Origin: an archaeon
GTDB taxonomy: Archaea > Nanobdellota > Nanobdellia > Woesearchaeales > UBA9642
DNA: 35,819 bases
Direction: 5' to 3'
Assembly: GCA_043806035.1 (NCBI GenBank)
Contig: JAZDHK010000007.1
Location: 1-35,819 of the forward strand
The notes beneath the pieces were generated by a model. That model did not search any database and was not told where the DNA came from. It worked only from the letters and a program-made list of their open reading frames with translations. The position numbers and the translations under genes are program-made. Below are positions 7,085 to 25,496 of the stretch, piece after piece (the first letter of the stretch is position 1; the number at the start of each line of letters is the position of its first letter).

Positions 7085-7088
7085 ATGA

Positions 7089-7108
7089 ATTATTTTATTA
7101 TTTTTTTA
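7089..7108 (+). terminator. Intra-operon T-rich terminator after phnD
   Basis: ATTATTTTATTATTTTTTT immediately after the phnD stop; typical archaeal oligo-T signal. Confidence 0.45.
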
Positions 7109-7133
7109 CATCTTATGATAGGAGTATACACTC

Positions 7134-7865: not shown

Positions 7866-7884
7866 GAAAGACGCATCATCGGTT

Positions 7885-8664
7885 ATGAACATGATACGGA
7901 TACGAAATCTGACACACAAGTACAAGAACAGGAACGAAGAGGCTCTGCAAAAAGTGAACTTGCACGTCAAGAAGGGAGAGCACGTCGTCATCATAGGATC
8001 GTCAGGATCGGGAAAGTCGACCTTGCTCAAATGCATCAACAGACTCATCAATCCTACTGCGGGCAGCATTCGTATCGACGGGGAAGAAATAATCAAGACC
8101 AAAGAAAAAAAAGCAGAACGGTTGCGTGGAAAAATGGGCATGATCTTCCAGAATTTCAATCTCGTTGAGAGAGAAACCGTCTATTATAATGTGATGAACG
8201 GCAGGCTCAGATACAATACCACCTTCACCACCTTATTCGGGAAGTTTTCAAAAGAGGACCATGCCATCGTCGAGGACAGCCTGAACAGGGTTGGTCTTCT
8301 CGCATACAAGCATGAGCGCGTCACCAACTTAAGCGGAGGACAAAAGCAGCGAGTGGCGATCGCCCGTGCGCTATCGCAAAAACCAGAAGCAATACTCGCC
8401 GATGAGCCCGTGTCTAATCTGGATCCGAAACTGATGAAAGAGATCATGGACTTGCTCAAGAATATCTGCGAGGAAAAAGGCATAACGCTCGTCACCAGCC
8501 TGCACTTCCTTGACTTTGCAAAAAGATATGCATCGAGAATAATCGCGATGAAGGAAGGAAAAATCGTCTTTGACGGCAAGCCTGGCGATTTGACCGAGAA
8601 AGATATCGTCGACATTTACGGCAAGACAAAAGACTGGTTCATGTATGGAAAAACAGGATATTGA
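7885..8664 (+). CDS. phnC: Phosphonate ABC transporter ATP-binding protein
   Basis: Walker A GSSGSGKST, IFQNFNLV, LSGGQKQRVAIARAL, ILADEPVSNLDP, SLH. Confidence 0.92.
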   Translation: MNMIRIRNLTHKYKNRNEEALQKVNLHVKKGEHVVIIGSSGSGKSTLLKCINRLINPTAGSIRIDGEEIIKTKEKKAERLRGKMGMIFQNFNLVERETVYYNVMNGRLRYNTTFTTLFGKFSKEDHAIVEDSLNRVGLLAYKHERVTNLSGGQKQRVAIARALSQKPEAILADEPVSNLDPKLMKEIMDLLKNICEEKGITLVTSLHFLDFAKRYASRIIAMKEGKIVFDGKPGDLTEKDIVDIYGKTKDWFMYGKTGY

Positions 8665-9491
8665 CCATGAAGAAAAAAAAGAAAAACAGCGAAGCACGGA
8701 GCAAAATTAAGCTTCCCAAGTGGAAATACAAGGGCATACTCATAGGTGTGCTGGTCGTCATCATCTATTACTGGGCCATTTCGGGAACGGGAGTGAGCCC
8801 GTCAGAATTCATCAAGGGCATCCCTTTCATGATGGATTTTATAGGAAGAATGTTCCCTCCTGATTTCACCAATCTTGGCAGGTTCTTGATGAAGGCTGTC
8901 GAGACGTTGCAGATGGCAATAGTTGGGTCTACAATCGGCATGCTCCTCGCATTACCCTTGTCATTTCTTGCAGCAAGAAACGTGATGCCGAACAAATTCA
9001 TCTACCACTCAATCAGGAGCTTGTTCGATACCCTGCGCGGCATAAATGAGATCGTGTGGGGTCTCATATTCGTCTCCATGGTCGGCCTTGGTCCCTTCCC
9101 CGGAGTGTTGGCATTGGCCGCTCACGTCACAGGAGCGCTGGGCAGGTATTTTTCAGAGGCTATCGAGACAGTGGATCAAGACGTAATAAAGGCAGTTGTT
9201 TCAACGGGCGCGAACAGAATCCAGGTCATCATACGAGGCATATTCCCTCAAGTAAAGCCGTTGTTCATCAACTACGCATTGTACTATCTTGAGAATAATT
9301 TCAGGGCCGCGACAGTCCTCGGATTGGTCGGTGCTGGCGGCATCGGCATGGAGTTGCTGACGAGCGTGCGACTGTTCAGAAACAGAGAGGTCATCGTCAT
9401 CCTTATCATCATGGTTCTCATGGTCACCTTGATCGACAGGTTCAGCGCATACATACGCAAGAAGGTCATCAAGGTAGAATCATTGGACTAA
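8661..9491 (+). CDS. phnE: Phosphonate ABC transporter permease
   Basis: RMFPPD, ETLQMA, FLAARN, GLGPFPGVLAL, ENNFRAATVLGLVGAGGIG; start TTG 8661 or ATG 8667. Confidence 0.92.
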   Translation: MTMKKKKKNSEARSKIKLPKWKYKGILIGVLVVIIYYWAISGTGVSPSEFIKGIPFMMDFIGRMFPPDFTNLGRFLMKAVETLQMAIVGSTIGMLLALPLSFLAARNVMPNKFIYHSIRSLFDTLRGINEIVWGLIFVSMVGLGPFPGVLALAAHVTGALGRYFSEAIETVDQDVIKAVVSTGANRIQVIIRGIFPQVKPLFINYALYYLENNFRAATVLGLVGAGGIGMELLTSVRLFRNREVIVILIIMVLMVTLIDRFSAYIRKKVIKVESLD

Positions 9492-9531
9492 ACACATAAA
9501 ACGTTATAAATACTGAAAAGAGGAAACGCGC

Positions 9532-10227
9532 ATGAAAGTCATTATTTTAGCATCAGGCAAGTCAACACGGTTGCTTCCGTTGACGAAGGAAACGCCGCAA
9601 TGCCTCTTGCGAATAAAAGGGAAGGAAATCCTGACCCACCAGTTAGCACATCTCAAGAAGGCAGGAATGCAGGACATACTCGTTGTTTGCGGGTATCTTG
9701 CAGACAAGGTCGAGACATTTTGCAAAGGCATCCGTGTCAAAACAGCATTGAATCCATTTTATGACATTTCTGGGCTGGCGATGAGCTTGTGGGTGGTCAA
9801 GGATGAATTGAAACATGGGTTTTTGATGGTGTATTCTGATGTAGTATTTGATCCTGCCATCATTGAAGGGGTCATGAAACACAAAGGAGATATTTACTTG
9901 GCCATTCAGAAAAACCGCCCTCGAGAGGAGGCTGAAAAAGTCATTGAAGAAAAAGGCGTGCTAAGAAGAATGACTAAAAAGAAAGTCCCTGAAGGAAATG
10001 GAGAGTTTGTGGGCATTGCACGGTTTTCGGAGAAAGGGGCTAAACTACTGCTCGATGAGTTGCATGCTGTCGCAAAAAAGAATATTGCTGCTTCACTAAT
10101 AGAGGTGATTGATACGCTCATAAGGAAAGGGATAACCGTACGCGCGTATGACATCAAAGATGCCGACTATGTTGACATCGATTTTCCTGCTGACATCAAA
10201 CGTGCAATAGACATCTTTGAATTCTGA
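9532..10227 (+). CDS. Second LicC/PntC-like nucleotidyltransferase
   Basis: VIILASGKSTRLLPLTKETPQCLL, NPFY, YSDV, GEFVGIA, YVDIDFPAD; own TATA (TTATAAAT 9504-9511). Confidence 0.85.
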   Translation: MKVIILASGKSTRLLPLTKETPQCLLRIKGKEILTHQLAHLKKAGMQDILVVCGYLADKVETFCKGIRVKTALNPFYDISGLAMSLWVVKDELKHGFLMVYSDVVFDPAIIEGVMKHKGDIYLAIQKNRPREEAEKVIEEKGVLRRMTKKKVPEGNGEFVGIARFSEKGAKLLLDELHAVAKKNIAASLIEVIDTLIRKGITVRAYDIKDADYVDIDFPADIKRAIDIFEF

Positions 10228-10243: not shown

Positions 10244-11221
10244 CTACCGCTTGTTCTGCGCATAGATGTCATAGATGAGTGTGATGCAGTGCAGGGCATC
10301 GTGCAAATCAGAGAGTGGCTTGTTTTCTTGGATGTGCATAACAAAATCCTCAAACTCTAAATCCCACGATCTGTCCTCTTCAGGGAAAGAAAATACTTCT
10401 TTGTCAGGGGGTCCCATCTCGGGTTTCATCTGATAGAAGGTGAGTGTTTCCACTCCATAACTTCTGCCTAACCCGCTAATTTCGATTTTTGCATTCCTGC
10501 ACATGATTTCGAACGAGAAGAGGTTCTTCCATTCGGTCCAGCAGGCATGGAGTTGCATGATTTGTCCTTGAGCGGTGCGAAGGAGAGCAAATCCGTTGTC
10601 TTCAACATCCATGTTCCAGAAATAGGTGGGGGTGAAGCCGACTGCATCTGCAAATTCTCCAAGAAACATGTTTCCAAGGTCGATGAGATGACAGCCTTGG
10701 TCCAACAACTCTCCTCCTCCAGATATGTCTTTTTTAGCTCGCCATTCCGTGTCATAGCCTATCCTGCCTCCGTGACCGTAGCGCGCCCTGATGAACATTA
10801 TGTCTCCGACAGAATCTTTTTTGAGGAGTTCTTTTGCTTTCAGCATGGCGGGATGATAACGGTGATTAAAGCCGACCTTTACCTTGATATTCTTTCCTCG
10901 AACGGCATCGAGCAATGTTTTCATCTCTTGCGGATTGCGCGCACCTGGTTTTTCGATGAGGACGTGCTTGCCGTGCTTGACTGCGTCAAGTGCTACAGGA
11001 ATGAGCATGTCGTTTGATGTGGAAACGATGACGATGTCAACGTCCGATCTCGTGACCTCTGTATACTCGGTAGTGAAACGGCAGGCATGTGCTTGGCTGA
11101 GCGTTCGTGCACGTTCTATGTTGGTGTCTGCGACAATCAAGAGTGTGTGGTCGTGCAGGGTTTTTGCTCGTTTGGTGCCGATGAATCCGCAACCGACAAT
11201 GCCTACCTTGTATTTTTTCAT
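10244..11221 (-). CDS. Gfo/Idh/MocA oxidoreductase (LmbZ/CcbZ family)
   Basis: VGIVGCGFIG, KHVLIEKP, VGFNHRY, GGGELLDQGCHLID. Confidence 0.88.
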   Translation of the reverse strand: MKKYKVGIVGCGFIGTKRAKTLHDHTLLIVADTNIERARTLSQAHACRFTTEYTEVTRSDVDIVIVSTSNDMLIPVALDAVKHGKHVLIEKPGARNPQEMKTLLDAVRGKNIKVKVGFNHRYHPAMLKAKELLKKDSVGDIMFIRARYGHGGRIGYDTEWRAKKDISGGGELLDQGCHLIDLGNMFLGEFADAVGFTPTYFWNMDVEDNGFALLRTAQGQIMQLHACWTEWKNLFSFEIMCRNAKIEISGLGRSYGVETLTFYQMKPEMGPPDKEVFSFPEEDRSWDLEFEDFVMHIQENKPLSDLHDALHCITLIYDIYAQNKR

Positions 11222-11994
11222 TTGTGCACCTCTAGGCTCTTGATGAGCGCTGCGTCTATTCTTCGTAACGTGAACAGATCTTTGTCATATGCTGCACTGC
11301 TGCGCTTGTCCCAATCATCATACAAATGGAGGAATCTGCCCGTAATGTTGTCCGATTGTTCTGTGCAGAGGAAGATAATGAATCGTTCAAGGCGGACAGG
11401 ATCAGCCCACGTCTTTGGTTCTTCATCGTGCAGTTGCTCGTCCCACATCTTTGTCTTGTGCTTTCCAGGGGCGATGACATTGATCGTGAGTTCAGGATGC
11501 TCTTCTGCCAGCGTTTCAGTGAAGCGGACCACTGCCGTCTTGGAACAGGCATATGCTGTGTGGTATCTTCTTGGATAGGCACTACCTCCTCCTGCAAAAT
11601 TGATGATCTTTCCTTTGCGTGCCTTTCGCAGGAGGGGAATGAGCAGTTGACATGCCTGCGCTGTGCCGAAGAGATTGACGGCAAATGTCGCTTTCCAAGC
11701 ATCCAGGTCGTTTTCGAGAAATGGACCAACAGGGCCAGTGACGCCTGCACAATTAATAAGCACATCTAGTGCCGTGATTCCGGACAGTGTACGCGAGAGG
11801 TCAGCCGAGTCAGCAATATTGCAGTGCAGCGTGTGCACTGCCGCCCCGTATGTCTTTTTGAGCGTCGAAGAAAGGATTTCTAGTTGTTCCTTCTCTATGG
11901 AAAGCAGGATGAGTGCAAAGTTGTGTTTTGCCAGAATGTGAGCTATCTTCGTACCTATGCCGCCCGTCGCACCCGTCAGAAGTACTGTTGGCAC
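11218..11994 (-). CDS. Short-chain dehydrogenase/reductase (paralog 2)
   Basis: LLTGATGGIG, INCAG, AYACSK (YxxxK), NVIAPG; start moved to GTG 11994 after GGAGGTGA. Confidence 0.88.
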   Translation of the reverse strand: MPTVLLTGATGGIGTKIAHILAKHNFALILLSIEKEQLEILSSTLKKTYGAAVHTLHCNIADSADLSRTLSGITALDVLINCAGVTGPVGPFLENDLDAWKATFAVNLFGTAQACQLLIPLLRKARKGKIINFAGGGSAYPRRYHTAYACSKTAVVRFTETLAEEHPELTINVIAPGKHKTKMWDEQLHDEEPKTWADPVRLERFIIFLCTEQSDNITGRFLHLYDDWDKRSSAAYDKDLFTLRRIDAALIKSLEVHK

Positions 11995-11998
11995 GCAT

Positions 11999-12859
11999 TC
12001 ACCTCCAGTGCAATCCTCTTTCTTTTGGCATGATGCGTCGCAGGGTGTATACGTCAGTGCTCTGAAGATCATTAATGTGCGTTTGGAATTCTCCCCACTT
12101 GTCCCAGACTGCGCTGATGAGTTTTCCCGAGACACCGTTGCTTTCTTCGCTCGCCAAATACACGCACAATGCCGCCCCTTTCTCTAAAGGAACTCCCCCT
12201 TCTTTTTTTTGACGTACTGATTTTTCGTAAAATGCTTTATCCACAAACTCAGGACCTGCCTCGAGAACCTCTTCCAAAAATCGTGTATTGAGTGCACCGG
12301 GCGCTATGGCGTTGATGTCTATGTGGAATGGCGCGTATTCTTTTGCGAGGGTTTCTGTTAGTCGGATAACTCCTGCCTTTGATGTGACGTACGCACTCAT
12401 GGTGGGGAGTGCACCGGGTCCTCCTCCTGCAATGTTGATGATTTTTCCATACTTGTTCGCCTGCATGTGTGGCAGGATGTGCTTACAGAAATACATCGTG
12501 CCGAATAGGTTGGTGACGATGGTCTGTTTCCACTCCTCGCTATTGTTGATGTCAAGCTTTCCTTTTGGTCCGCAAATGCCCGCATTGTTTACCATGATGC
12601 GAATAATGCCGAGTTCACGTATGCTGTAGTCGATGAATTGCTGTACTGCATGCTCATCAGCGACATCTACGGCGCGACATATGATTTTTTGCTTGTCCTG
12701 TGCCAGGGCACGCAGGTGTGCAACGGCAGCCGTGAGTTTCTTCTCATTGCGCGCACAGAGAGACAGTGATGCCCCTTCCTTGACGAATGCTTCAGCTATT
12801 GCTAAGCCCAATCCTTGGTTGGCTCCTGTGATTATTGCATTGCAATTGGTCAGTTTCAT
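11999..12859 (-). CDS. Short-chain dehydrogenase/reductase (paralog 1)
   Basis: ITGANQGLG, VNNAG, AYVTSK, NAIAPG; ATG 12859 overlaps the upstream stop (ATGA). Confidence 0.9.
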   Translation of the reverse strand: MKLTNCNAIITGANQGLGLAIAEAFVKEGASLSLCARNEKKLTAAVAHLRALAQDKQKIICRAVDVADEHAVQQFIDYSIRELGIIRIMVNNAGICGPKGKLDINNSEEWKQTIVTNLFGTMYFCKHILPHMQANKYGKIINIAGGGPGALPTMSAYVTSKAGVIRLTETLAKEYAPFHIDINAIAPGALNTRFLEEVLEAGPEFVDKAFYEKSVRQKKEGGVPLEKGAALCVYLASEESNGVSGKLISAVWDKWGEFQTHINDLQSTDVYTLRRIMPKERGLHWR

Positions 12860-14136
12860 GCTCTCCCCACACATACGTATGTGAAATCTTTTTTTTCAGG
12901 AAGTTCTTTCTCGATGAATCCCGTCGGATCGATGATTTTTTTTCCTGAGAATGATGCGGGATGGTCTGCCCACAGTTTCTTGAACGCCTGATGTTCTGTT
13001 GAAATAATGATGCATTCGGCTGAGCTAAGTGCGTCCTGCACAGTGGTTTGGAGCTGTATCGTATCAGAAAGGGATGCGGACAGCGCGGTTATGTACGGGT
13101 CGTAGGCGTAGACAATGCCTCCTTGCGAGCGTATCCATTCGCACAACTCCACTGAAGAAGATCTTCGTAAGGTGTTTGTGTTTGGTTTGTAAGTGAGGCC
13201 GAGTACGGCGAAACGTACGTTCTGCAATTTGCCGAACAGTTCTATGCATTTCCGTTTCAGCCAGCCTTTGTGGTAGTCATTGCTTGCCTTGACCGCTTCG
13301 ATGAGCATAGCTTTTTTGTGGTTTTCGTGGCTAAGATCGATAAGGAAGTTGATGTCTCTGGCAAGAGTTCCTCCTGCGAAGGAAAGCCCGGGACCGAGGT
13401 ATGCTTTGGGTCCTATGCGCGCTTCCGTCTTGAGCCCTCGTGCCACTTCCTTAGCGTCTGCACCCACTGCTTCACATATCGTTGCAAGCTCGTTCGCAAA
13501 AACGACGGAGGTGGCAAGGAAGGAATTGATGGCGTGCTTGGTCATTTCTGCCGACTCTGTCTTCATCCATTCTAGCCTGTCTGTTATTTTGGAGAAGAGT
13601 GGCCTGAATTCTTCCACGTCCGAGAGATTGCGCACGCCTATAATGATTCGGTCTGGTTCGCGGAACACCTGTATTGCCTGGCCCAATCTCAAATTTTCTG
13701 GAGAACAGGCAACATGCACGCTTTTTCCCGCTTGCACGAAAAGGTCTTCTATCTCTTTTGTAAATCCGACGGGCGCTTGGGAGGAAATAATGACTTTTGC
13801 CCCTTGAGGAACATACGGCAGTACTTTTCGTATGTTGTCCTTGACAAAAGCGAGATCTGCCACGTCATGGTCGTCAACTGGTGTATCGAAGGCAACCCAG
13901 AACACGTCGACTCCAGCAAGCGCTGATTTTGCATCGGTGGTAAAGGAGAGCGTGCTGTTCAGGTTCTTTTTGATGAGCTCTTCAAGACCGGGCTCGAACA
14001 GTGGAGGTTTTCCATTTTTAAGATTGGTTATCGTTTTTTCGTCAAAGTCAAGACCAATAACAGTACAACCGGAATCTGCTAGACAGGCTGCAGTGACGCA
14101 GCCCAGATGCCATAATCCAAAGACGCATACGTTCAT
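12856..14136 (-). CDS. UDP-glucose/GDP-mannose dehydrogenase homolog lacking the catalytic Cys (LmbL family)
   Basis: GLWHLG, EPGL, DTP, PENLRLG, SAEMTKHAINSF, GPGLSFAGGTLARD (canonical GGxC), LGLTYKPNT; start ATG 14136. Confidence 0.88.
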   Translation of the reverse strand: MNVCVFGLWHLGCVTAACLADSGCTVIGLDFDEKTITNLKNGKPPLFEPGLEELIKKNLNSTLSFTTDAKSALAGVDVFWVAFDTPVDDHDVADLAFVKDNIRKVLPYVPQGAKVIISSQAPVGFTKEIEDLFVQAGKSVHVACSPENLRLGQAIQVFREPDRIIIGVRNLSDVEEFRPLFSKITDRLEWMKTESAEMTKHAINSFLATSVVFANELATICEAVGADAKEVARGLKTEARIGPKAYLGPGLSFAGGTLARDINFLIDLSHENHKKAMLIEAVKASNDYHKGWLKRKCIELFGKLQNVRFAVLGLTYKPNTNTLRRSSSVELCEWIRSQGGIVYAYDPYITALSASLSDTIQLQTTVQDALSSAECIIISTEHQAFKKLWADHPASFSGKKIIDPTGFIEKELPEKKDFTYVCVGRA

Positions 14137-14231
14137 CACACACCCCACACGCACATATGAGAGGGAGAAAGAGGACAATTTATAAATTTAGTGCTGAATG
14201 CTGCTCCACTGAAAACGCCTGCAACAGGCGC

Positions 14232-14912
14232 TTATTTGAACTTTGCGGCATCATTCAGGAACATCTGCACCGTCTCTTTCGTATACGGATGTATGAGCAT
14301 GCCGTTCAGCAGGTTAGGGACTACGGTGACGATGTGTCCGCCTGCATCGAGCCATTCGATGACGTTAAGCACTTCTCTCGTGCTTGCGCAGATGATCTTT
14401 GCTTTCAGGTTGAACATGTCGAGCAGTTTTCGCAGTTTCTTCACTTCTTCGATAGAGTTGTAGCCCATGTTATTGACCCTACCACAGAAGATGCTGACGT
14501 ATGTTGCCCCTGCAAGGGCTGCGAGGAAGCATTGCTGTGCGCTCATCATTGCCGTGACATTGATGCGGACGTTGTGCACATTTTCAAGATCATAAATGAC
14601 CTTCATGTTGTCCAATTCTCCATTTGGCCCGTGGATGGGTACTTTGATGTTGATGTTCTCCGCCCAGTGCGAGAATTCTATGGCTTGTTCTATCATGTCT
14701 TGCATGTTTTCGTTGCTGGTGAGCTCGACAGAGAGTGGCAATGGGTAGATGAGCTGGGCTATTTCTATGCAGACGCGTTTCACACCCTCCATGCCGCCGC
14801 TGACTCCTGATTTTGCGAGGATTGTTGGATTGGTGGTTACTCCCCTGATGATGCCCATTTCGAGATAGTGCTTGATTTCGCTGATGTTTCCTGTGTCCAA
14901 AAATATTGGCAT
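14232..14912 (-). CDS. tal: Transaldolase, TalC/MipB type (LmbR family)
   Basis: IFLDT, GVTTNPT, LSVE, IKVP (Schiff-base Lys), INVT, YVSIFCGR, ASTR; the Glu/Phe pair indicates transaldolase rather than fructose-6-P aldolase. Confidence 0.9.
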   Translation of the reverse strand: MPIFLDTGNISEIKHYLEMGIIRGVTTNPTILAKSGVSGGMEGVKRVCIEIAQLIYPLPLSVELTSNENMQDMIEQAIEFSHWAENINIKVPIHGPNGELDNMKVIYDLENVHNVRINVTAMMSAQQCFLAALAGATYVSIFCGRVNNMGYNSIEEVKKLRKLLDMFNLKAKIICASTREVLNVIEWLDAGGHIVTVVPNLLNGMLIHPYTKETVQMFLNDAAKFK

Positions 14913-14936
14913 GATTTCCCCCCCTTGTCGTTGTGT

Positions 14937-15371
14937 CTAGTTCCTCTCCTCTTTTGATTCCCAGCAAAAATTGATTTGCTTGTCCGTCTCTTGAAAGAAC
15001 AGCGTGGGCCTGAACTGTGCTGTTGGTTTGTGGAACATGACCGCGGTGACATTTCCTGCAAATGCAGACAGGGTTTTTCCCGTGTTCGTGCAGTCATCGA
15101 CGACAAGCGTGTTCGGCGTGATGCGTTCTTTATTGGTAATAAGCGGCAGTCCTGTCATGTAGCTCAGCTTCACGCCAAGGCACAGACCCCCACGCGGCAA
15201 CGCGTAGATGCTATCAAAGGGTCTGTTCAGCACGTGGAGTTCATCGTACAAGTGCTTAATAGCTCTCTCGAACATGTCCCACGTGACAAAAATCCGTTGT
15301 TCTATGTTCATTTCATCGAAGAGCGTGTACTCAAGGATGTTCTTCAACACAACGTTATTCAGACGTGCCAT
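14937..15371 (-). CDS. Small type I phosphoribosyltransferase (Gpt-like)
   Basis: VTW, IYALPRGGL, PRPP-binding loop LVVDDCTNTGKTL, C-terminal FCWE; GGAGG RBS. Confidence 0.8.
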   Translation of the reverse strand: MARLNNVVLKNILEYTLFDEMNIEQRIFVTWDMFERAIKHLYDELHVLNRPFDSIYALPRGGLCLGVKLSYMTGLPLITNKERITPNTLVVDDCTNTGKTLSAFAGNVTAVMFHKPTAQFRPTLFFQETDKQINFCWESKEERN

Positions 15372-16042
15372 TGGCCGTCCTCTCCATACTCGTTCACGAG
15401 TTCTTTCAGGCGCTCGACGAGTGCTTCCTTGCCATGAATGTGTTCATCATAGTCTTGGATGAGTTCTTTCAGTCTGAAAATGATGAGGTGATGGATATCA
15501 CCATGAAACCCTTCCACTAACGGCGTTGAATTTTTTGGTACGATGATGCAGGCATCTGCAAGTTCCGTGAATGCCCCTCCATCAAAGCCTGCAATGCCTA
15601 TCGCTTTGCCCCCCTTGTCTTTGACGAACTGCATGGCCTTGGTCAAATTCTGGCTCCAGGCCAGTGCGTTGCCCCTTCCTTTTCCTCCATGGACGCTGAA
15701 GCAGACGATGACATCTCCTCGCTTGATGAAGTTCTCGATCTGGCCGACAAAGACGTTGTCCCATCCCTCGTCATTAATCCATGCGGTAATGAGGGAAGGG
15801 TTCTCGACAAGAGAAATGGCTTTTATGCGTTTCTTGTTTTTGCTCATGGTCGTTTTTGCCAAGTCTGCGGCGAAATGGCTTGCCGTGCCCGCACTGCCTC
15901 CACAGCCCGCAACATAGACGTGGTTGCCTTTCTGCCATGCCTCGAAGAGGATATCTACTGCTTTTGCAATTGCTGTTCTGTCTATGTTGATAGCAATGTC
16001 CTGTATTTCATCAAGATACGTTGCGATATAGTCCTCATGCAT
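15359..16042 (-). CDS. SIS-domain sugar-phosphate isomerase (GmhA/LmbN-like)
   Basis: GCGGSAGTASHFAADL, TAWINDEGW, GFDGG, VEGFH; SVHGG in place of GmhA STSG. Confidence 0.85.
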   Translation of the reverse strand: MHEDYIATYLDEIQDIAINIDRTAIAKAVDILFEAWQKGNHVYVAGCGGSAGTASHFAADLAKTTMSKNKKRIKAISLVENPSLITAWINDEGWDNVFVGQIENFIKRGDVIVCFSVHGGKGRGNALAWSQNLTKAMQFVKDKGGKAIGIAGFDGGAFTELADACIIVPKNSTPLVEGFHGDIHHLIIFRLKELIQDYDEHIHGKEALVERLKELVNEYGEDGQWHV

Positions 16043-17060
16043 GATACCCCTCCGCTATATTCATCAGATGATCTTCTCTGTAGACGATGCGTGCGCCGTC
16101 AAAATCAAACCGGAATGGCATGTAGATGAGCCCTTCTTTTTCGAGGAGGGTTTTGATGCGATCGTGGTTGTTCTCGACATAAACCATGAGGAATCCGCCG
16201 CCTCCAGCGCCGATGATCTTCCCACCTAATGCGCCGTTACGCATGGCAAGGTCGTACCACGTGTCTATTTGTGAGTTAGACATGCTTTGGGTTATCTTGC
16301 GCTTGAGTTCCCAGTGGACGTTCATCCATTCTCCGAATCTGGGCAGGTTGGCGACTTCAAGACATTTCCTGCTTTGGTCCCCTATTTTTTTGATCTCGTG
16401 ATAGTAGGAGAACATATCGTCCTGGCTGGTCTTGCTTTCCGCCTTCGTTTTCTGCTCTTGCAAGAGTGCGTTGGCGCTGTGCGTGAATCCCGTGAAGAAG
16501 AGCATGAGGTTTTTTTCGAGCTTGCGTATGTTTTCGTGCTCTATGTTAATGGGTGTTACAATGACTCTGCCGTTCGTTCCTATCTTGAGATGGTTAAGGT
16601 GCCCGAATGCCGAGGCGTACTGGTCTTGCTTACCTATAGGTTCCTTGAGGACGTTCATGGTTATGTGTGATGCATCCTCGGCAAGCTTGTACTTTGAGAC
16701 GACTTCTCCTTTATAGAAGTAGAGCGCATTGAGCAAACCGACAAGGAATGCGCTTGAGCTGCCAAGACCATTTCCTGCAGGAAGGTCTGCAATGGAGTGT
16801 ATTTCTATACTTTCTTTAATGCCAAGAAGTCGCAGCGCCTCTCTGATGAGCGGATGTTGTATGTCATCGAGGTCATTGACGATCTCCGTCCGAGAGTAGT
16901 TGAGCTTGATGTCGGTGTCCACTCTACGACTTACGGTGATGTAGACATACTTGTTGATGCTCGCCGTAAGCAAGGATCCGCCGAATTTGTCCGCAAAGAA
17001 GGGGAGGTCCGTGCCTCCACCACCTAGCGATATGCGCAATGGCGCTCTGCTGATAATCAT
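16035..17060 (-). CDS. hddA: GHMP sugar-phosphate 1-kinase (HddA/LmbP-like)
   Basis: SRAPLRISLGGGGTDLP, DLPAGNGLGSSSA, GKQDQY, GALGGKIIGAGGGGF. Confidence 0.88.
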   Translation of the reverse strand: MIISRAPLRISLGGGGTDLPFFADKFGGSLLTASINKYVYITVSRRVDTDIKLNYSRTEIVNDLDDIQHPLIREALRLLGIKESIEIHSIADLPAGNGLGSSSAFLVGLLNALYFYKGEVVSKYKLAEDASHITMNVLKEPIGKQDQYASAFGHLNHLKIGTNGRVIVTPINIEHENIRKLEKNLMLFFTGFTHSANALLQEQKTKAESKTSQDDMFSYYHEIKKIGDQSRKCLEVANLPRFGEWMNVHWELKRKITQSMSNSQIDTWYDLAMRNGALGGKIIGAGGGGFLMVYVENNHDRIKTLLEKEGLIYMPFRFDFDGARIVYREDHLMNIAEGYHA

Positions 17061-17140
17061 AAACTACCACCACTTAACACTTTTTCAATAACTCTGAATA
17101 ACTAATATATAAATCTTTCTTAGAAAGTGTTATAAATAGA
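17061..17140 (-). promoter_or_regulatory. Promoter region of the kinase-isomerase-PRTase-transaldolase operon
   Basis: Minus-strand TTTATATA (17106-17113); inverted repeat TAACACTTT (17075-17083) / AAAGTGTTA (17124-17132); CTTTCT-T-AGAAAG palindrome; GGTGG RBS. Confidence 0.55.
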
Positions 17141-17206
17141 GTAAAAAGAAACAAATAACAACCCAATAATGACAAAAGAATGAGTTTATTGGTAGATGGG
17201 ATGAAA

Positions 17207-18529
17207 TCAAAGAAGTCTCATAAGAGCTTCACTCAGCGTTGCAACGGCACAATCAGGCGCTGCGTTGATGTTCAGCTCATGTTTGCTTCCTAATCCCTCT
17301 CCTGATGTCAGGATGGTTTTGCATCCCGCTGCCTTTCCTGCCGCAATGTCTGAAGGCGAGTCTCCTATCATCCAGGATTCTGACAGATCGAGATAGGGGT
17401 CGTCTTTCTTAGCTTGTAGGATGAGCCCGGGTTTTGGTTTTCTGCAGTCACAATCCATCTTGAGTTCTGGAATTTCTCCAAAAAATCCTTTTTCAGGATG
17501 ATGCGGACAAACGTAGATTGCGTCAATATACGCCCCTTCTGCCGCCAGTGCATCAGTCATTTTCTTGTGAACCCTGTCCAGATCGGAAAAGGTCATGAAT
17601 CCTTTCGCAATGATAGGTTGGTTTGTGACAATGATGGCGAAATAGTCGCTTTCATTGATGCGCTTGATGGCCTCAACCACTCCAGGCAGCAGCTCGAATT
17701 GTTCAGGAGAGGTTATGTTTTCTGCGTTCTTGTTGATGACGCCATCCCTGTCAAGGAATATCGCCTTTCTTTTTTTGGTCATGTGCATGATGTCCTTACC
17801 TTTCCACGCAACCCTGAAACGGAGGTATTTCTCGAGCCTGCCGAATTCACGAAAGTCATTGCAGACGAATGCCTGCATGCGTTCCTTATTCACCAGCAGT
17901 TTGGGGAAGACATCTTTGGCAAAATCGACCTTTTTTCCTTCAAGAATGTACTCAAAAACGCTCGGTTCGATGATGTAGATGCCGTTGTTGATGTACGCGT
18001 TGGTGCTGTTGGCAAAATCTTCAGGAGTCGGTTTCTCGATGAAGGACGTTATCATGAATTGTGCATCCGTGCGTATGAGACTGGAACTTTTGTATCCTTT
18101 CGGAAGGTCTCTTACCACAACCGTGCAGGCGGCATGGTGACGGTTGTGTTGTGCAAGGGCGTCGTCCAGCTGCAGCGGGGTAAGCACGTCGCCATAGAAG
18201 ACGATAAACGTATCGTCGATTTTTTTCCGAAGCAGGCCGACCGATCCTGCAGTGCCTAAGAGCTGTTCTGGTTCGGCGCTGTAATCAATATGCATGCCTA
18301 TCTTTTCGCCGTTGCCAAAATACGCCTTGACCTGTTCAGCGAGGTGTGCAACGCAAAAAATGATGTTAGTATAGCCTTGCCGCTTGAATTCGAGCAATTG
18401 GTGCTCGATAAGTGGCCTATCCCCGAGCGGGATGAGGCATTTGGGGATGGTCTGCGTGAACGGCTGCATACGTGTCGCAAGGCCCCCCGCGACGATAACG
18501 ATGACCGGTTTGTCAGGTTCTTTCATCAT
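17207..18529 (-). CDS. Bifunctional sugar-1-phosphate nucleotidyltransferase (HddC/LmbO-like) + HAD bisphosphate phosphatase (GmhB/LmbK-like)
   Basis: N-term VAGGLATRM...PKCL, LGTAG, YGD, FIEKP; C-term FLDRDGVIN, VTNQ, CPHHP, CDCRKPKPG, MIGD. Confidence 0.9.
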   Translation of the reverse strand: MMKEPDKPVIVIVAGGLATRMQPFTQTIPKCLIPLGDRPLIEHQLLEFKRQGYTNIIFCVAHLAEQVKAYFGNGEKIGMHIDYSAEPEQLLGTAGSVGLLRKKIDDTFIVFYGDVLTPLQLDDALAQHNRHHAACTVVVRDLPKGYKSSSLIRTDAQFMITSFIEKPTPEDFANSTNAYINNGIYIIEPSVFEYILEGKKVDFAKDVFPKLLVNKERMQAFVCNDFREFGRLEKYLRFRVAWKGKDIMHMTKKRKAIFLDRDGVINKNAENITSPEQFELLPGVVEAIKRINESDYFAIIVTNQPIIAKGFMTFSDLDRVHKKMTDALAAEGAYIDAIYVCPHHPEKGFFGEIPELKMDCDCRKPKPGLILQAKKDDPYLDLSESWMIGDSPSDIAAGKAAGCKTILTSGEGLGSKHELNINAAPDCAVATLSEALMRLL

Positions 18530-19466
18530 ACACCCACTGGTTGTTCTTAAGCCAGTTGATGGTCTTCTTGACTGCCTGCTCGATGTTCAGCTTTGGCTTC
18601 CAGCCAAGCGCCATCATTTTCTTGACATCAAGAAGAATGAACGGACTATCCCCCACCCAACCGCGCTCTCCTCCCGAATACGTGAACTTCACATCATTAA
18701 GGCCGAGCTCTTTGCACACGATATTCGCTATGGGCATGACTTGTATGTATTCTGGCGTGCCAAGATTGAAGATGTTAATGTTGTCCTTGCATTTCGTTAT
18801 GGCGAGAAACAAGGCGTCCATACAGTCCTGCACGTACAGGTAGCTCTTCTTCTGCTGACCATCGCCAAGCATGTGCAGTCCCTTTGGATTCTCTCTGAGG
18901 CGTTGGTAGAAGTCGAAGACGCAGCCATGCGTGTAACGCTCTCCCATGAGACTTACGAACCTGAAGATGAATACCTGAAAGTCATAACCGACGGCATATG
19001 CCTGCAGTAAGCCTTCGCACGCAAGCTTTGACGCTCCGTACATGGAAGTTTGGATGGGAAAATGATAGTCCTCCGGTGTAGGGAATACGTCAGGCTCTCC
19101 GTAGATGCTGCCCGTGCTTGCGAATGCTATCCTTTTGACGTTGCAGGTGCGCATGGCTTCGAGGACGTTGCTTGTTGCTATGGTGTTCTGCTCAAGGCAT
19201 TTTGTTGGGTATTTGAGATTGTCTTTCACGTCTGCATTCGCTGCCATGTGAAAGACGAAGTCGACGCCAACCATCGCCTTGCACAGACTCTTCATGTCGA
19301 GCAGGTCCGCCTTGACAAAGGTGATGTGTTTTTTTGCATTTTCCAAGAAACGCAGATTTCCTGTCGACAGATTGTCGTACACGATAACGTCATGACCCTG
19401 GTGCACAAGCCTGTCAACGACAGTACTGCCAACGAACCCTGCTCCGCCAGTAACGAGATATTTCAT
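18513..19466 (-). CDS. NAD-dependent nucleotide-sugar epimerase (extended SDR, LmbM/GalE-like)
   Basis: VTGGAGFVGS, DNLSTG, FHMAANADV, SMYGASK, GDGQQKKSYLYV; ATG 19466 after GAGGTGA. Confidence 0.9.
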   Translation of the reverse strand: MKYLVTGGAGFVGSTVVDRLVHQGHDVIVYDNLSTGNLRFLENAKKHITFVKADLLDMKSLCKAMVGVDFVFHMAANADVKDNLKYPTKCLEQNTIATSNVLEAMRTCNVKRIAFASTGSIYGEPDVFPTPEDYHFPIQTSMYGASKLACEGLLQAYAVGYDFQVFIFRFVSLMGERYTHGCVFDFYQRLRENPKGLHMLGDGQQKKSYLYVQDCMDALFLAITKCKDNINIFNLGTPEYIQVMPIANIVCKELGLNDVKFTYSGGERGWVGDSPFILLDVKKMMALGWKPKLNIEQAVKKTINWLKNNQWVYDERT

Positions 19467-19471: not shown

Positions 19472-20446
19472 TCACCTCACGATGCCTCTGTACTCTCCCA
19501 CACAATAACCAAAATGCAAAAGCAAAAAGACGAGGAAGACCTGTCCTGATAAGTGCAGTTTTTTCGCTTTCGCGCTCAAGATGATTGCATAGATGAGCGT
19601 GCCTGGAAAGTAGAGCAAAGGGATGAAGAACAGCGGATTCCAGATGGCAAGGAGGGATGAGGCGATAACGATGCCGAACGCAAGAGGAAGAAGGTAGAGT
19701 GGATTGTTGTCAGAGAACTGCTTCTTGAGAAATCCCATGCGGACCCTCCCGTAGAGGACCATGTTCTTCCAGAACTTTATCGGTGTTGGCCTGAACTTGT
19801 GCCAGACAAAACTGTCCTTAAGCCCCATAAGGACGTATCCTTTCTTTTTAAGCAGCAACCCGAGAATCCAGTCATCACCCATATTTCCTGCATACGTGGG
19901 AAAAAGCCCAACATGAAACAGCGCTTTTTTCTCAAACAGGCAATTCGTGCAGGAAAGGCTGAAGACCTGTCCGTCTTTTTTCAGTGGCTTTGCCTGGATG
20001 CTGCCCAAGCTTCCCAGAAATGAGTTAAAGGCAATGCCTATTGCTGTCGTGAAGTCGTCTTTTTCTGCAAGAGGAATGTTTGCCCCACCCACCCCCGCAA
20101 GATGAGGAACGGTCTTTTCGTACGAACAATACTTGCGCGCCAAGTTGTTCAACCAGTCTTTGGGAGGTATGCAGTCGGCATCGGTGAATGCGATGAATTC
20201 ATAGTTTGCCTTGCGTACGCCCACATTCCTGCTCGAATTCTGAAAACGCCCCTTATCTGTAAAGAATCGCACGTTCTTGTGTCGTTTGGAATAGGATTTG
20301 ACAATTTTTGGAGTGGCGTCTGTTGATTGGCCATCAGCCACCACTATCTCGAACGGCTGCGTGTATTTTTGCGCGAGCAATGCATCTAAACACAGGGAGA
20401 TGTTCCTCTCTTCATTCCTCGTTATGACGACTATGGAGACACGCAT
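19472..20446 (-). CDS. Glycosyltransferase family 2 (ExoA-like, C-terminal TM helices)
   Basis: VSIVVITRNEE, ADGQSTD, FTDADC, GVGG; ATG 20446 about 25 nt after TATATAAA. Confidence 0.88.
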   Translation of the reverse strand: MRVSIVVITRNEERNISLCLDALLAQKYTQPFEIVVADGQSTDATPKIVKSYSKRHKNVRFFTDKGRFQNSSRNVGVRKANYEFIAFTDADCIPPKDWLNNLARKYCSYEKTVPHLAGVGGANIPLAEKDDFTTAIGIAFNSFLGSLGSIQAKPLKKDGQVFSLSCTNCLFEKKALFHVGLFPTYAGNMGDDWILGLLLKKKGYVLMGLKDSFVWHKFRPTPIKFWKNMVLYGRVRMGFLKKQFSDNNPLYLLPLAFGIVIASSLLAIWNPLFFIPLLYFPGTLIYAIILSAKAKKLHLSGQVFLVFLLLHFGYCVGEYRGIVR

Positions 20447-20469
20447 GACGAGAAGGATGAGACCTTGAT

Positions 20470-21486
20470 TTATATAGATTTCCGCAAAAGATGACGATTC
20501 ATCAGCAAGCCCGTCAGGACCCCCCACCCATACCCTGCGTGCATGATCGGAATCAAGAACACACATCGCACGTATTCAGGGTCTTTGTGCATGATTATTT
20601 CTTCTGCTGTGACGAGGAAGAGGATGAGCACGTAGGTGAGCAGGAGCAAAAAGAAGAAAAAACGAACAAGCGGATTGAAGAGTGCGGCTATCGCTGCGAT
20701 GAAAAAAAACAGCATGAGCACTGCCAGGGTCGGCGCATACCAGCGTATCGATTGTTTGTGTTTGAGCATGGTCTTGGACATGATCCTACCATAATAGAGC
20801 ATGTGCGAAAAGAATGCACATGCCGATGCTTGTTCATGATGGAATATGGACACGGATGGAAAAAAGAATAATTGCAAACCTTGCTGTCGCAATCTGAAGT
20901 TAAGCTCGTTGTCATCGCTGTTGAAGAGCGTTTCATCATATCTGTTCTTAACAAGCACGTCTTTTCTGTAGAGCGCGTTGCAGTTAGCAATGCTGTCTGT
21001 GGCAAAGGGCGCCCGTTCCTGTGCACTTCCGCTCGAGAGAAGGTCTGATATGATTTGCGCTTGTTTGGAATCTGCGGGGTGTGGCAGTCTTGGTCCGCCG
21101 ACACATGCTACCGTTCTTGGCTGTTGGCCAATGGCTGAAACAAGCGAAGAGAGCCAATGCTTGGGGACTGAGCAGTCCGCATCAGTGAATGTAATGTATG
21201 CTGCTTTTTTGTTGCTTGCGTCGATGACGCAGTTTCTTGCATGACAGGGGCCGAACGCATCGTGCGTCGCTGTGTCGATGATGCGTATGCGCTTGCTTTT
21301 TTTCTGCAATTGCTCCACGGTAGAAAAGGTGTTGTCTGTGGAACGGTCATTGACGAAGATGATTTCAAAAGAAGACTTTGGATAGTCTTGGTCGAGGATG
21401 CAGTGCAGGGTCTCTGCGATGTGTACCTCTTCGTTTTTAGCGATGACACCAACGGTAACGAAGGGAGACGCTGATTTTTTGCGCAT
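20470..21486 (-). CDS. Glycosyltransferase family 2 (ExoA-like paralog)
   Basis: VTVGVIAKNEE, NDRSTD, FTDADC, SDDNELNFRL; ATG 21486 after ATTTATAAAT (21508-21517). Confidence 0.88.
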   Translation of the reverse strand: MRKKSASPFVTVGVIAKNEEVHIAETLHCILDQDYPKSSFEIIFVNDRSTDNTFSTVEQLQKKSKRIRIIDTATHDAFGPCHARNCVIDASNKKAAYITFTDADCSVPKHWLSSLVSAIGQQPRTVACVGGPRLPHPADSKQAQIISDLLSSGSAQERAPFATDSIANCNALYRKDVLVKNRYDETLFNSDDNELNFRLRQQGLQLFFFPSVSIFHHEQASACAFFSHMLYYGRIMSKTMLKHKQSIRWYAPTLAVLMLFFFIAAIAALFNPLVRFFFFLLLLTYVLILFLVTAEEIIMHKDPEYVRCVFLIPIMHAGYGWGVLTGLLMNRHLLRKSI

Positions 21487-21557
21487 GCGACGTCCAGGGC
21501 AAAAATCATTTATAAATGTATAGAAAAGTTTAAAAAGCATCTTGGATTCCTTCATTT

Positions 21558-25494: not shown

Positions 25495-25496
25495 TC

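Follow-up and report, generated by a model that had tools for sequence, protein, structure and literature searches.

A closely similar enzyme set is known from the lincosamide octose pathway, in which the roles of LmbR, LmbN, LmbP, LmbK, LmbO, LmbM, LmbL and LmbZ are tabulated (Table 2 of PMC4351081; Table 1 of PMC12945683) and in which LmbR, according to the available part of PMC5854111, forms octulose-8-phosphate from fructose-6-phosphate or sedoheptulose-7-phosphate plus ribose-5-phosphate. The second system to be considered is the pathway to GDP-D-glycero-alpha-D-manno-heptose (GmhA, HddA, GmhB, HddC), which has four protein families and the chemical logic in common with the locus described here and is the source of the closest solved structures for three of its proteins.

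The locus is situated at positions 10244-19466 of the window, i.e., the whole analysed stretch of 35,819 nucleotides from an archaeon of the Woesearchaeales. Compared by the family names and roles given in the available parts of the sources, it shares with the lincosamide pathway a transaldolase, an isomerase, a kinase, a phosphatase, a nucleotidyltransferase, an epimerase, a dehydrogenase and an NAD(P) oxidoreductase, the transaldolase as first committed step being a common hallmark. An earlier note on this DNA had matched it to the lincosamide sugar genes, with SDRs replacing the aminotransferase, and at the level of enzyme families this is borne out by what these sources tabulate (PMC4351081, PMC12945683). 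There are also differences: the cassette possesses one or two classical SDRs but no aminotransferase, it contains neither carrier-protein domains nor thiol or amino-acid condensation genes, and it occurs in an archaeal glycan locus and in many non-actinomycete bacteria, whereas a fused nucleotidyltransferase-phosphatase and an inserted PRTase-like gene distinguish the window itself. Given this occurrence, the product would be a surface-glycan building block, not an antibiotic. Compared with the GDP-heptose pathway, the cassette adds a dedicated transaldolase and a four-enzyme redox/epimerase module.

Distribution and gene order of the cassette

The window operon is best explained as a local variant of a cassette that is widespread but uncharacterised and that would assemble a nucleotide-activated higher sugar de novo and subsequently modify it; this nine-gene set, conserved over many bacterial and archaeal phyla, is the main new result. 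Relatives of its Thr-type dehydrogenase (see below) are encoded in at least 578 of 599 pattern-matched stretches of species-representative genomes. All nine enzyme families are found together in 49 of the best 80 related loci, and 39 of these 80, from around 20 phyla, exhibit one shared gene order (epimerase, dehydrogenase, SDR, Gfo, kinase, nucleotidyltransferase, isomerase, phosphatase, transaldolase) within a span of 6.1-7.5 kb, such that the arrangement lies far above chance. The archaeal framing of the earlier note had to be given up, as the cassette is cross-domain and patchy across bacterial and archaeal phyla; among the window's own kin, just 2 of 41 genomes carry it. The early enzymes of the window are no more than about 30-36%, or in a wider range 25-40%, identical to those of the bacterial cassette (transaldolase around 30%, isomerase 32-40%, phosphatase 27-43%, nucleotidyltransferase 27-44%). 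The RefSeq pipeline gives the cassette genes generic names only. Frequencies among "roomy loci" refer in the following to the 40 loci with at least 7 kb on either side.

Enzymes encoded in the archaeal operon

According to the ORF list and the Pfam and NCBIfam scans, positions 10244-19466 constitute a single operon-like run, all on the minus strand, in which neighbouring genes overlap or are separated by at most 146 nt; the gene families listed in the earlier note are all present there and contiguous. Aminotransferase families had no match among the 35 window ORFs scanned, nor was an acetyltransferase found among those scanned.

The run begins with an extended-SDR NDP-sugar epimerase (18513-19466; Epimerase, 171 bits), for which a start at M14 corresponds to the end coordinate 19466 given previously. 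Its strongest solved relatives are 3EHE (299 bits) and 8RDG (268 bits), which fall into a subgroup of GDP-preferring, promiscuous archaeal 4-epimerases according to the available part of PMC12171764; membership in this GDP-sugar 4-epimerase subgroup is supported by sequence, and an LmbM-like role is proposed. For the Pyrococcus horikoshii (PhGal4E_1, 8RDG) and Archaeoglobus fulgidus (3EHE) enzymes, GDP-L-fucose and GDP-glucose served as substrates, without pathway context, whereas the window epimerase belongs to a family fixed in the cassette (40 of 40 roomy loci), which suggests a higher sugar as native substrate.

In the product of the following gene (17207-18529; Pfam, NCBIfam), a sugar-1-phosphate nucleotidyltransferase (NTP-transferase; residues ~11-236) is joined to a GmhB-like phosphatase of the HAD-IIIA type (~253-435), a fusion also found in the related loci L001 and L073 and in genome G043. 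Its PDB matches comprise GmhB (110 bits) and mannose-1-phosphate guanylyltransferases; concerning the nucleotidyltransferase domain, the best PDB match is 8x7s, named UTP-glucose-1-phosphate uridylyltransferase, and the top NCBIfam match is mannose-1-phosphate guanylyltransferase. We propose LmbO-like and LmbK-like roles for the two domains.

For the HddA-like GHMP kinase (16035-17060; GHMP N and C domains), which reaches 180.6 bits on the HddA model (cut-off 600), has 3k85, 4usk and 4n3o as PDB relatives and finds a counterpart in 39 of the 40 roomy loci, a role as anomeric sugar-phosphate kinase (LmbP-like) is proposed. The SIS-domain, GmhA-like isomerase (15359-16042; SIS_2) scores 96.9 bits on the gmhA model (cut-off 209.45), and its best PDB matches are phosphoheptose isomerases at up to 69 bits. 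It thereby outscores the bacterial cassette isomerases (48-60 bits), in three genomes of which canonical GmhA reaches 164-208 bits on the same model; it is a candidate ketose-phosphate isomerase with an LmbN-like role.

Between isomerase and transaldolase, a 144-aa ORF (14937-15371) carries the PRPP motif LVVDDCTNTGKT. Its predicted fold (AF2, pLDDT 86.8; best Foldseek matches 1vdm, HGXPRT and XGPRT) is closest to purine phosphoribosyltransferases. The family comprises 31 clusters, a gene of this type occupies the same position in L001 and L073, and the insertion is regarded as specific to the window's lineage.

The short (class-V type) transaldolase (14232-14912; TAL_FSA, 131.5 bits) is the single PF00923 match in its own genome and keeps both the Schiff-base Lys and the Phe typical of transaldolases when aligned to 3s0c and 3r8r. 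In the tree, it groups with L001 and L073, apart from the large cassette transaldolase clade, the stem of which measures 3.05 changes per site. A transaldolase is present in 35 of the 40 roomy loci. That it is dedicated to the pathway is indicated by this long stem, by a long housekeeping transaldolase elsewhere in four of five carrier genomes, and by fusions to HAD (4) or SIS (1) domains among the ten transaldolase-containing long forms scanned. Sequence comparison thus supports that transaldolase and isomerase of the bacterial form are dedicated, divergent paralogues beside the housekeeping ones.

The late enzymes begin with a homologue of UDP-glucose/GDP-mannose dehydrogenases (12856-14136), which retains all three UDPG_MGDP_dh domains of the 6-dehydrogenases, passes TIGR03026 (300.9 bits; cut-off 189.8) and has PDB relatives at up to 207 bits. 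In the active site, alignment to PDB 3gg2 places GLSFAGGTLARD opposite GCGYGGSCFPKD of that structure, such that Thr takes the place of the catalytic Cys, confirming the Cys-less homologue noticed previously, and in the motif (GGTLARD versus GGSCFPKD of 3gg2) the Lys following the Cys is changed to Arg as well. Both replacements set the subfamily apart from the 6-dehydrogenases, and GGTLARD is unchanged in all 20 aligned homologues; in the absence of the catalytic Cys, the enzyme would not be expected to carry out the second oxidation, which yields the acid. LmbL is said (Wang et al. 2020) to be UDP-Glc-DH-like and LmbZ Gfo-like, with a 6,8-dehydration as the chemistry concerned. For the Thr-type dehydrogenase, the marker gene of the cassette, we propose an LmbL-like role.

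SDR 'B' (11999-12874; adh_short, 172 bits) represents the kind of SDR found in canonical cassettes and directly follows the dehydrogenase homologue in 38 of the 40 roomy loci (42-63% identity). SDR 'A' (11218-11994; adh_short, 138 bits; motifs TGATGGIG and YACSK), the ORF of which extends to 12135 with a likely GTG start at 11994, has relatives of 48-52% identity that form the N-terminal part of fusions with the Thr-type dehydrogenase (P0007 and P0010), a link that ties the late enzymes together. Both are proposed ketoreductases. The Gfo/Idh/MocA NAD(P) oxidoreductase (10244-11221; Pfam GFO_IDH_MocA N and C domains), with sugar C3 or keto oxidoreductases as best PDB relatives and counterparts in all 40 roomy loci (46-68% identity), may take an LmbZ-like role as the reduction half of the dehydration.

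Proposed product and alternative readings

As the window families match LmbR/N/P/K/O/M/L/Z, with ketoreductases for the aminotransferase, a GDP-8-deoxy-octose-type sugar would be the best reading of the cassette, with a probability of roughly 0.55; the choice between C8 and C7 lies beyond what sequence can decide. The non-amino deoxy-octose nucleotide of the earlier note is thereby upheld in part: the family match, the loss of the Cys, the dedicated transaldolase and isomerase of the bacterial form and the GDP-type epimerase speak for it, whereas the distance of the window's early enzymes from the bacterial cassette, the position of its transaldolase outside the large clade and the higher gmhA score of its isomerase speak against it.

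In the proposed pathway, the transaldolase would transfer a C3 unit from fructose-6-phosphate onto ribose-5-phosphate, and the resulting octulose-8-phosphate would be converted into the aldose by the GmhA-like isomerase, phosphorylated at C1 by the HddA-like kinase, freed of its terminal phosphate by the GmhB-like domain and turned into GDP-octose by the fused nucleotidyltransferase. The Cys-less dehydrogenase homologue would then oxidise the C6 secondary alcohol, and the Cys loss would be explained by a ketone being formed without any thiohemiacetal step; the Gfo enzyme would finish the 6,8-dehydration, the 4-epimerase-type SDR would reset stereocentres, and the classical SDRs would reduce the keto group where lincosamide producers transaminate. 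Apart from Kdo-type acids, the literature searched on prokaryotic surface glycans yielded no C8 aldose.

A modified GDP-heptose (C7), for which the transaldolase merely supplies sedoheptulose-7-phosphate, is less probable but a serious rival. GmhA/HddA/GmhB/HddC-like enzymes would then form GDP-D-glycero-alpha-D-manno-heptose, and dehydrogenase, Gfo enzyme, SDRs and epimerase would alter C6 and C4. Among named proteins, heptose enzymes are indeed the best matches to the four early enzymes, as are they in every case among the closest solved relatives of kinase, phosphatase and isomerase; however, the window proteins score below the cut-off of all four heptose equivalog models, in line with the earlier objection to a plain GDP-heptose annotation. 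The Cys-to-Thr change would suit C7 as well, the heptose C6 being a secondary alcohol too, but a C6-keto heptose would have no C8 hydroxyl to eliminate, and Lmb-type dehydration would not apply. Concerning the transaldolase, the pentose-phosphate pathway is often incomplete in such archaea, such that a cluster-borne copy could be a supply enzyme, and G043 contains a half-cassette devoid of late genes with an ordinary-type transaldolase behind the isomerase. Bacteria with a housekeeping transaldolase, for which sedoheptulose-7-phosphate is a standard metabolite, nevertheless keep a second, strongly divergent cassette copy, which in some cases forms a single protein with the phosphatase or isomerase. 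The cassette isomerase is far from the canonical GmhA of the same genome, and to our knowledge, characterised GDP-heptose clusters carry no transaldolase. No transketolase was found in the window's own genome (93.7% complete), which leaves no evident source of erythrose-4-phosphate for sedoheptulose-7-phosphate, but this argument is weak because the sister genome G013, with the same cassette, possesses one (as do 24 of the 41 genomes in that search), a point in favour of C7. RpiA, RpiB, Rpe and PRPP synthase were not found in the own genome either, and the supply of ribose-5-phosphate is thus equally unexplained.

A higher sugar of other size or activation, e.g., a C9 ketose-derived one (hexose-6-phosphate as acceptor) or one carried by a nucleotide other than GDP, is improbable. 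The aldose phosphates that accept the C3 unit from transaldolases vary in length, as stated in the available part of PMC5854111, but the only characterised pathway with such an enzyme set, as far as covered by the available parts of PMC4351081, PMC5854111 and PMC12945683, gives a C8 sugar. The long stem beneath the cassette transaldolases indicates a changed enzyme and does not tell in what respect it changed. As to the nucleotide, the uridylyltransferase 8x7s is set against the guanylyltransferase match in NCBIfam and the GDP-preferring epimerase subgroup. Chance neighbourhood of an ordinary heptose module and a separate WbpA/WbpB-like uronic-acid module (dehydrogenase plus Gfo), a pair known from 2,3-diacetamido-uronic acid pathways as well, with a weak match of the Gfo enzyme to the archaeal UDP-GlcNAc 3-dehydrogenase model (90.5 bits; cut-off 450) as a further pointer, is highly improbable in view of the single order of early and late genes in 39 of the best 80 loci from around 20 phyla, the absence in 20 of 20 aligned homologues of the Cys required for acid formation, and the lack of aminotransferase and acetyltransferase among the window ORFs scanned.

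Glycosyltransferases and surface-glycan surroundings

Directly upstream of the operon and on the same strand, two GT2 genes (19472-20566 and 20470-21555; Glycos_transf_2, 92 and 88 bits) probably make use of the sugar nucleotide; the GDP-8-deoxy-octose-type sugar would pass through them into a surface glycan, for which the S-layer or pilin glycans named in the earlier note are candidates. Bacterial cassettes are accompanied by a conserved GT2 in 20, a methyltransferase in 11 and a GtrA-family protein in 6 of the 40 roomy loci, and by their GT2 and GtrA companions they resemble lipid-linked sugar transfer of the Gtr/Arn type (GT2 polyprenyl-phosphate glycosyltransferase, GtrA-type flippase, membrane transferase). 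Queries with the bacterial-type GT2 and GtrA of L040 had no match for the window's closest loci, L001 and L073. In contrast to Gtr/Arn-type transfer, the neighbourhood in the window possesses two other GT2 genes and a Wzx-type flippase, and a GT2a homologue, 53-54% identical, occupies the equivalent position in L001 and L073.

Enzyme set of the minus-strand operon

Between 10244 and 19466 of the window, every long ORF with a protein-family match lies on the minus strand, and neighbouring genes overlap or are separated by at most 146 nt. From the upstream end, Pfam and NCBIfam identify an extended-SDR epimerase (18513-19466, with its start at M14), a nucleotidyltransferase fused to a HAD-IIIA phosphatase (17207-18529), a GHMP kinase (16035-17060), a SIS isomerase (15359-16042), a short transaldolase (14232-14912), an NDP-sugar dehydrogenase homologue (12856-14136), two classical SDRs, "B" (11999-12874) and "A" (11218-11994), and a Gfo/Idh/MocA oxidoreductase (10244-11221); a purine-PRTase-like ORF of 144 aa (14937-15371, minus strand) is situated between isomerase and transaldolase. 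Two GT2 glycosyltransferases (19472-21555) are found directly upstream of the operon. An earlier note on this DNA had placed these families in one minus-strand cluster, with which ORF calls, Pfam, and NCBIfam agree in every item.

For the lincomycin sugar pathway, the published role tables list LmbR as transaldolase, LmbN as isomerase, LmbP as kinase, LmbK as phosphatase, LmbO as guanylyltransferase, LmbM as epimerase, LmbL as dehydrogenase, LmbZ as oxidoreductase, and LmbS as aminotransferase (PMC4351081, PMC12945683). LmbR is described as forming an octulose phosphate from F6P or S7P and R5P (PMC5854111), and GDP-octose as being converted to GDP-lincosamide by LmbM, LmbL, and the celesticetin proteins CcbZ and CcbS (PMC12945683). 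Eight enzyme families are common to this pathway and the operon (transaldolase, isomerase, kinase, phosphatase, nucleotidyltransferase, epimerase, dehydrogenase, and NAD(P) oxidoreductase), whereas the window possesses two classical SDRs in place of the LmbS/CcbS-type aminotransferase, for which there was no family match among its 35 ORFs; the earlier note had anticipated both the co-encoded roles and this replacement. LmbL was reportedly described by Wang et al. in 2020 as UDP-glucose-dehydrogenase-like and LmbZ as Gfo-like, the step in question being a 6,8-dehydration. When seven window proteins were searched against PDB sequences, none of the lincosamide sugar enzymes was among the matches.

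The dehydrogenase homologue scores 300.9 bits against the NCBIfam model of the NDP-sugar dehydrogenase subfamily (cut-off 189.8). When it is aligned to PDB 3gg2, GLSFAGGTLARD in its active site lies opposite GCGYGGSCFPKD, such that the catalytic Cys is replaced by Thr and the next Lys by Arg, and the protein is Cys-less, as had been claimed; the two-fold oxidising UDP-glucose 6-dehydrogenases require a Cys at this position for the thiohemiacetal/thioester. The motif GGTLARD is invariant in 20 of 20 aligned homologues. Two long homologues (P0007 and P0010), both with GGTLARD, are SDR-dehydrogenase fusions, the SDR part of which is of the type of the window's SDR "A".

Concerning the transaldolase, the Schiff-base Lys and a Phe are kept (IKVP and VSIFCGR, vs VKIP and VSPFVGR of 3s0c). 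Phe versus Tyr at that position separates transaldolases from fructose-6-P aldolases (FSA), and by this rule, taken from general background, the window protein, with Lys and Phe rather than the FSA-type Tyr, is a transaldolase; its TIGR00875 score is below the cut-off (157.8 vs 245.95).

The 144-aa protein, whose window copy has no match in Pfam, is part of a small protein family (31 clusters) and contains a PRPP-binding motif; VVDDCTxTGKT and PRGGL are invariant or nearly so across 19 sequences of the family. Its predicted structure (pLDDT 86.8) resembles purine phosphoribosyltransferases (1vdm, HGXPRT, XGPRT), with a Foldseek probability of 1.00 against 1vdm, 5bqo, and 1a97. Motif and modelled fold together are those of a type I purine PRTase, and this activity is predicted.

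Distribution and gene order of the cassette

The Thr-type dehydrogenase, which serves as marker gene, is represented by more than 120 clusters at 52-67% identity. A locus scan with one genome per species gave at least 599 pattern-matched stretches, at least 578 of which encode relatives of this dehydrogenase. The best 80 loci were analysed by tblastn with the window proteins, repeated with Paraburkholderia proteins; by record title, 69 are bacterial, from about 18 phyla, and 11 archaeal (Methanoregulaceae, Methanospirillum, Methanosarcinales, Thermoplasmata, a Nanoarchaeota MAG, and an unclassified archaeon). Cultured carriers among these 80 are Paraburkholderia dinghuensis, Rhizobium sp. BK313, Pollutimonas bauzanensis, and Mycolicibacterium sp. 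P1-18.

All nine families were found in 49 of the best 80 loci, the remainder lying mostly on short contigs, and a single gene order, spanning 6.1-7.5 kb, was found in 39: epimerase, dehydrogenase homologue, SDR, Gfo, kinase, nucleotidyltransferase, isomerase, phosphatase, transaldolase. For the 40 of these 80 loci that are flanked by 7 kb or more in both directions, the window queries detected the epimerase and Gfo genes 40 times each, the kinase 39, the SDR 38, the nucleotidyltransferase and the transaldolase 35 each, and the phosphatase and the isomerase 34 each; with Paraburkholderia queries, the isomerase was detected in 36 of the 40. Within the same 40, bacterial cassettes are often preceded by a conserved GT2 (20/40), a methyltransferase (11/40), or a GtrA-family protein (6/40). 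Two Methanoregulaceae loci (L010 and L016) contain no classical SDR and have the Gfo gene relocated behind the transaldolase; in L010, the next gene is a small ORF that matches a methyltransferase domain only weakly (E 0.003).

Directly after the Paraburkholderia cassette (locus L040, 17305-19272), a 655-aa protein without Pfam match is encoded, for which the other 79 of the best 80 loci were negative except for one weak match in L053; it may be a membrane transferase using a lipid-linked sugar. The cassette also occurs on large Rhizobium replicons (H1, H2) and, in rearranged order, on plasmid 3 of the pig-gut pathogen Lawsonia intracellularis (L097, NC_008014.1 9571-28875), beside genes for a membrane protein resembling lysyl-PG synthase and for two hypothetical proteins, each about 1090 aa long. 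RefSeq names on the Lawsonia plasmid are generic ("SIS domain-containing protein", "HAD-IIIA family hydrolase", "transaldolase", "nucleotide sugar dehydrogenase", "SDR family oxidoreductase", "Gfo/Idh/MocA family oxidoreductase", "galactokinase", "nucleotidyltransferase family protein"), and relatives of the Thr-type dehydrogenase are also annotated as "UDPglucose 6-dehydrogenase".

In a maximum-likelihood tree of 58 transaldolase rows, those of the bacterial and Methanoregula cassettes form one clade (100/100) with a stem of 3.05 changes per site. Nine rows had been excluded beforehand, either for ORF lengths outside 190-300 aa (L023, L027, L059, L063, L078, L040, L042, L069) or as a duplicate of the window (L081). 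Membership of the window transaldolase in the bacterial clade is unsupported; it falls into its own small clade, and the tree in effect splits three ways. Queried with the cassette transaldolase of Mycolicibacterium, a set of 1.84 billion representatives gave 655 matches at E <= 1e-30; the ten of most Streptomyces-like composition carried no informative names. The cassette type was present in 4 of 401 sampled Actinomycetes genomes, the query's own included. ESM Atlas matches were to "transaldolase family" clusters only. Ten transaldolase-containing long forms comprised four phosphatase-transaldolase fusions and one transaldolase-SIS fusion, and one Radical_SAM_2-transaldolase protein was also seen (with the two SDR-dehydrogenase fusions P0007 and P0010, these are proteins P0158, P0161, P0175, P0179, P0165, and P0261).

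Two transaldolase-family genes are found in all five carrier genomes checked; the second copy in four, G001-G004, is a long transaldolase of the housekeeping type with high scores (286-321 bits). A housekeeping second copy in every carrier does not hold for the fifth, G005 (Methanoregulaceae; loci L014 and L088), in which two nearly identical cassette-type genes lie 1.2 Mb apart, possibly as a second cassette or a recent duplication.

Candidate product and competing explanations

The best explanation, with a probability of roughly 55%, is a GDP-octose pathway whose end product is an 8-deoxy sugar with a reduced keto group, because the lincosamide sugar pathway is the only characterised one with the cassette's enzyme set. 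The transaldolase of the operon, which has intact catalytic residues, would use ribose-5-P as acceptor and yield octulose-8-P; the dehydrogenase homologue would oxidise the secondary alcohol at C6 to a ketone, which the loss of the Cys fits; and a dehydration of Lmb type would remove the C8 hydroxyl, giving an 8-deoxy sugar.

The main rival is a modified GDP-heptose, which we consider less likely but serious, and which is stronger for the window than for the bacterial cassettes since the early enzymes of the window resemble ordinary ones more closely. Compared with bacterial cassettes, the window's epimerase (52-60% identity), dehydrogenase (46-64%), SDR "B" (36-60%), Gfo protein (38-57%), and kinase (39-51%; 62% in one short fragment) are well conserved, whereas transaldolase (about 30%), isomerase (32-40%), phosphatase (27-43%), and nucleotidyltransferase (27-44%) are poorly conserved. 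In PDB searches, the closest structures are HddA/WcbL for the kinase, GmhB for the phosphatase domain, and GmhA for the isomerase. Against the curated NCBIfam models for GDP-D-glycero-alpha-D-manno-heptose synthesis, all four window enzymes remain below the cut-offs: the isomerase for gmhA (96.9 vs 209.45), the kinase for HddA (180.6 vs 600), the phosphatase for GmhB (NF006506, 153.5 vs 178; NF050049, 103.5 vs 250), and the nucleotidyltransferase for HddC (76.2 vs 300). The cassette isomerases of five carriers score 48-60 bits with the gmhA model; canonical GmhA proteins in three of those genomes score 164-208.

A further point touching the heptose alternative is precursor supply. In the source genome (1.5 Mb, 42 contigs, 93.7% complete), searches for transketolase (either domain), RpiA, RpiB, Rpe, and PRPP synthase found none of them, and the cassette transaldolase is the sole one detected. 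The obvious source of erythrose-4-P for sedoheptulose-7-P is thereby removed, but ribose-5-P is left equally unexplained. To conclude from this that no heptose is made is weakened by the transketolase present in G013 (Nanoarchaeota archaeon WY4.bin80, of the same family) and in 24 of 41 kin genomes, and the erythrose-4-P argument is therefore given little weight.

Another chain length or another nucleotide is clearly less probable again. Among solved structures, the epimerase, which has the SDR catalytic Tyr-x3-Lys as YGASK, is closest to 3EHE of A. fulgidus (299 bits) and to PhGal4E_1 of P. horikoshii (8RDG, 268 bits). PhGal4E_1 and A. fulgidus relatives are described as a GDP-preferring, highly promiscuous subgroup of 4-epimerases (PMC12171764), and by relation to these proteins the window epimerase is a predicted member of the GDP-sugar 4-epimerase subgroup.

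That early and late genes are two unrelated modules is very improbable. Variant loci without early genes exist (e.g., L017, L025, L079). A half-cassette is present in the related genome G043, of the same order (L090, G043:C58, 6383-10996), with epimerase, fused transferase-phosphatase, kinase, isomerase, and a transaldolase of ordinary type, and without dehydrogenase, SDR, and Gfo; the position of the transaldolase behind the isomerase with three different transaldolase lineages argues that the transaldolase product feeds the isomerase. The transaldolase and the isomerase are regarded as enzymes of the pathway and not as bystanders.

The window's own gene order (GT2, epimerase, transferase-phosphatase fusion, kinase, isomerase, PRTase-like gene, transaldolase, late genes) is shared, among the best 80 loci, only with L001 and with L073, the cassette locus of G013, at 48-77% identity. 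A true Thr-type dehydrogenase (>700 bits) was found in two of 41 kin genomes, the source genome and G013, the other 14 matches reaching at most 336 bits; within this lineage, the cassette thus has a patchy distribution. The same two genomes have the PRTase-like gene within the cassette (G013 copy: L089, 9564-...) and no detected PRPP synthase, whereas the enzyme is present in three genomes without that gene (G043, G044, G038), a comparison of few genomes. Speculatively, a PRTase lacking PRPP supply may act in reverse, or may supply ribose phosphate or guanine nucleotides.

Returning to the GDP-octose pathway, we propose that the cassette may represent a version of the lincosamide sugar pathway that works with a ketoreductase and for primary glycans, across both domains. 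A more far-reaching reading is put forward tentatively, all its parts taken jointly: the GGTLARD nine-gene cassette would make GDP-8-deoxy-octose, a new class of neutral C8 sugar in prokaryotic surface glycans of hundreds of bacterial and archaeal species; it would be the primary-metabolism ancestor of the Streptomyces lincosamide sugar pathway, in which the ketoreductase was swapped for an aminotransferase; and the DPANN PRTase-like enzyme would be PRPP-forming or nucleotide-splitting, feeding ribose phosphate to the transaldolase in cells without pentose-phosphate pathway and PRPP synthase.

In the open-access papers searched, no description of the cassette or of such an octose in surface glycans was found (subscription papers and supplements may differ), and GDP-octose and octulose 8-phosphate were found in lincosamide and metabolomics contexts only. 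An E. coli survey names "octoses" as a sugar class only, which we assume to be Kdo-type acids. If the product is indeed an octose, sugars hitherto known from a single antibiotic family would be a common cell-surface building block in both prokaryotic domains, with carriers including cultured Paraburkholderia, Rhizobium, Pollutimonas, and Mycolicibacterium as well as the Lawsonia intracellularis plasmid, and the lincosamide sugar pathway would have an evolutionary source. It would also give a function to the large Cys-less branch of UDP-glucose dehydrogenases and to the divergent transaldolase clade with its 655 representatives, suggest a native substrate class for the promiscuous GDP-sugar 4-epimerases, and correct generic annotations such as "galactokinase", "transaldolase", "nucleotide sugar dehydrogenase", and "UDPglucose 6-dehydrogenase". 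Even for a heptose derivative, a widespread, order-conserved nine-gene cassette without assigned product merits characterisation.

Surroundings of the operon

The wider window is a glycan-synthesis island, for which Pfam indicates more GT2 enzymes, three methyltransferases, and a flippase of Wzx/MurJ type. A second GDP-sugar pathway adjoins the cassette at 22747-24731 (plus strand), with a GDP-mannose 4,6-dehydratase (467 bits) and a GDP-fucose-synthase-like SDR. Seven ORFs within 24985-27480 and 28251-35817, among them ORFs of 1086, 729, and >492 aa, have no Pfam match at E <= 1e-5 and might encode surface proteins; an ScpB gene lies at 27458-28333. On the other side, 2357-10227 (plus strand) contains genes for a CDP-alcohol phosphatidyltransferase, a cytidylyltransferase, two MobA/LicC-like nucleotidyltransferases, a methyltransferase, and a phosphonate-binding ABC transporter of PhnD type (binding protein 251 bits), which together hint at a phosphonate or phospho-alcohol decoration of the same glycan.
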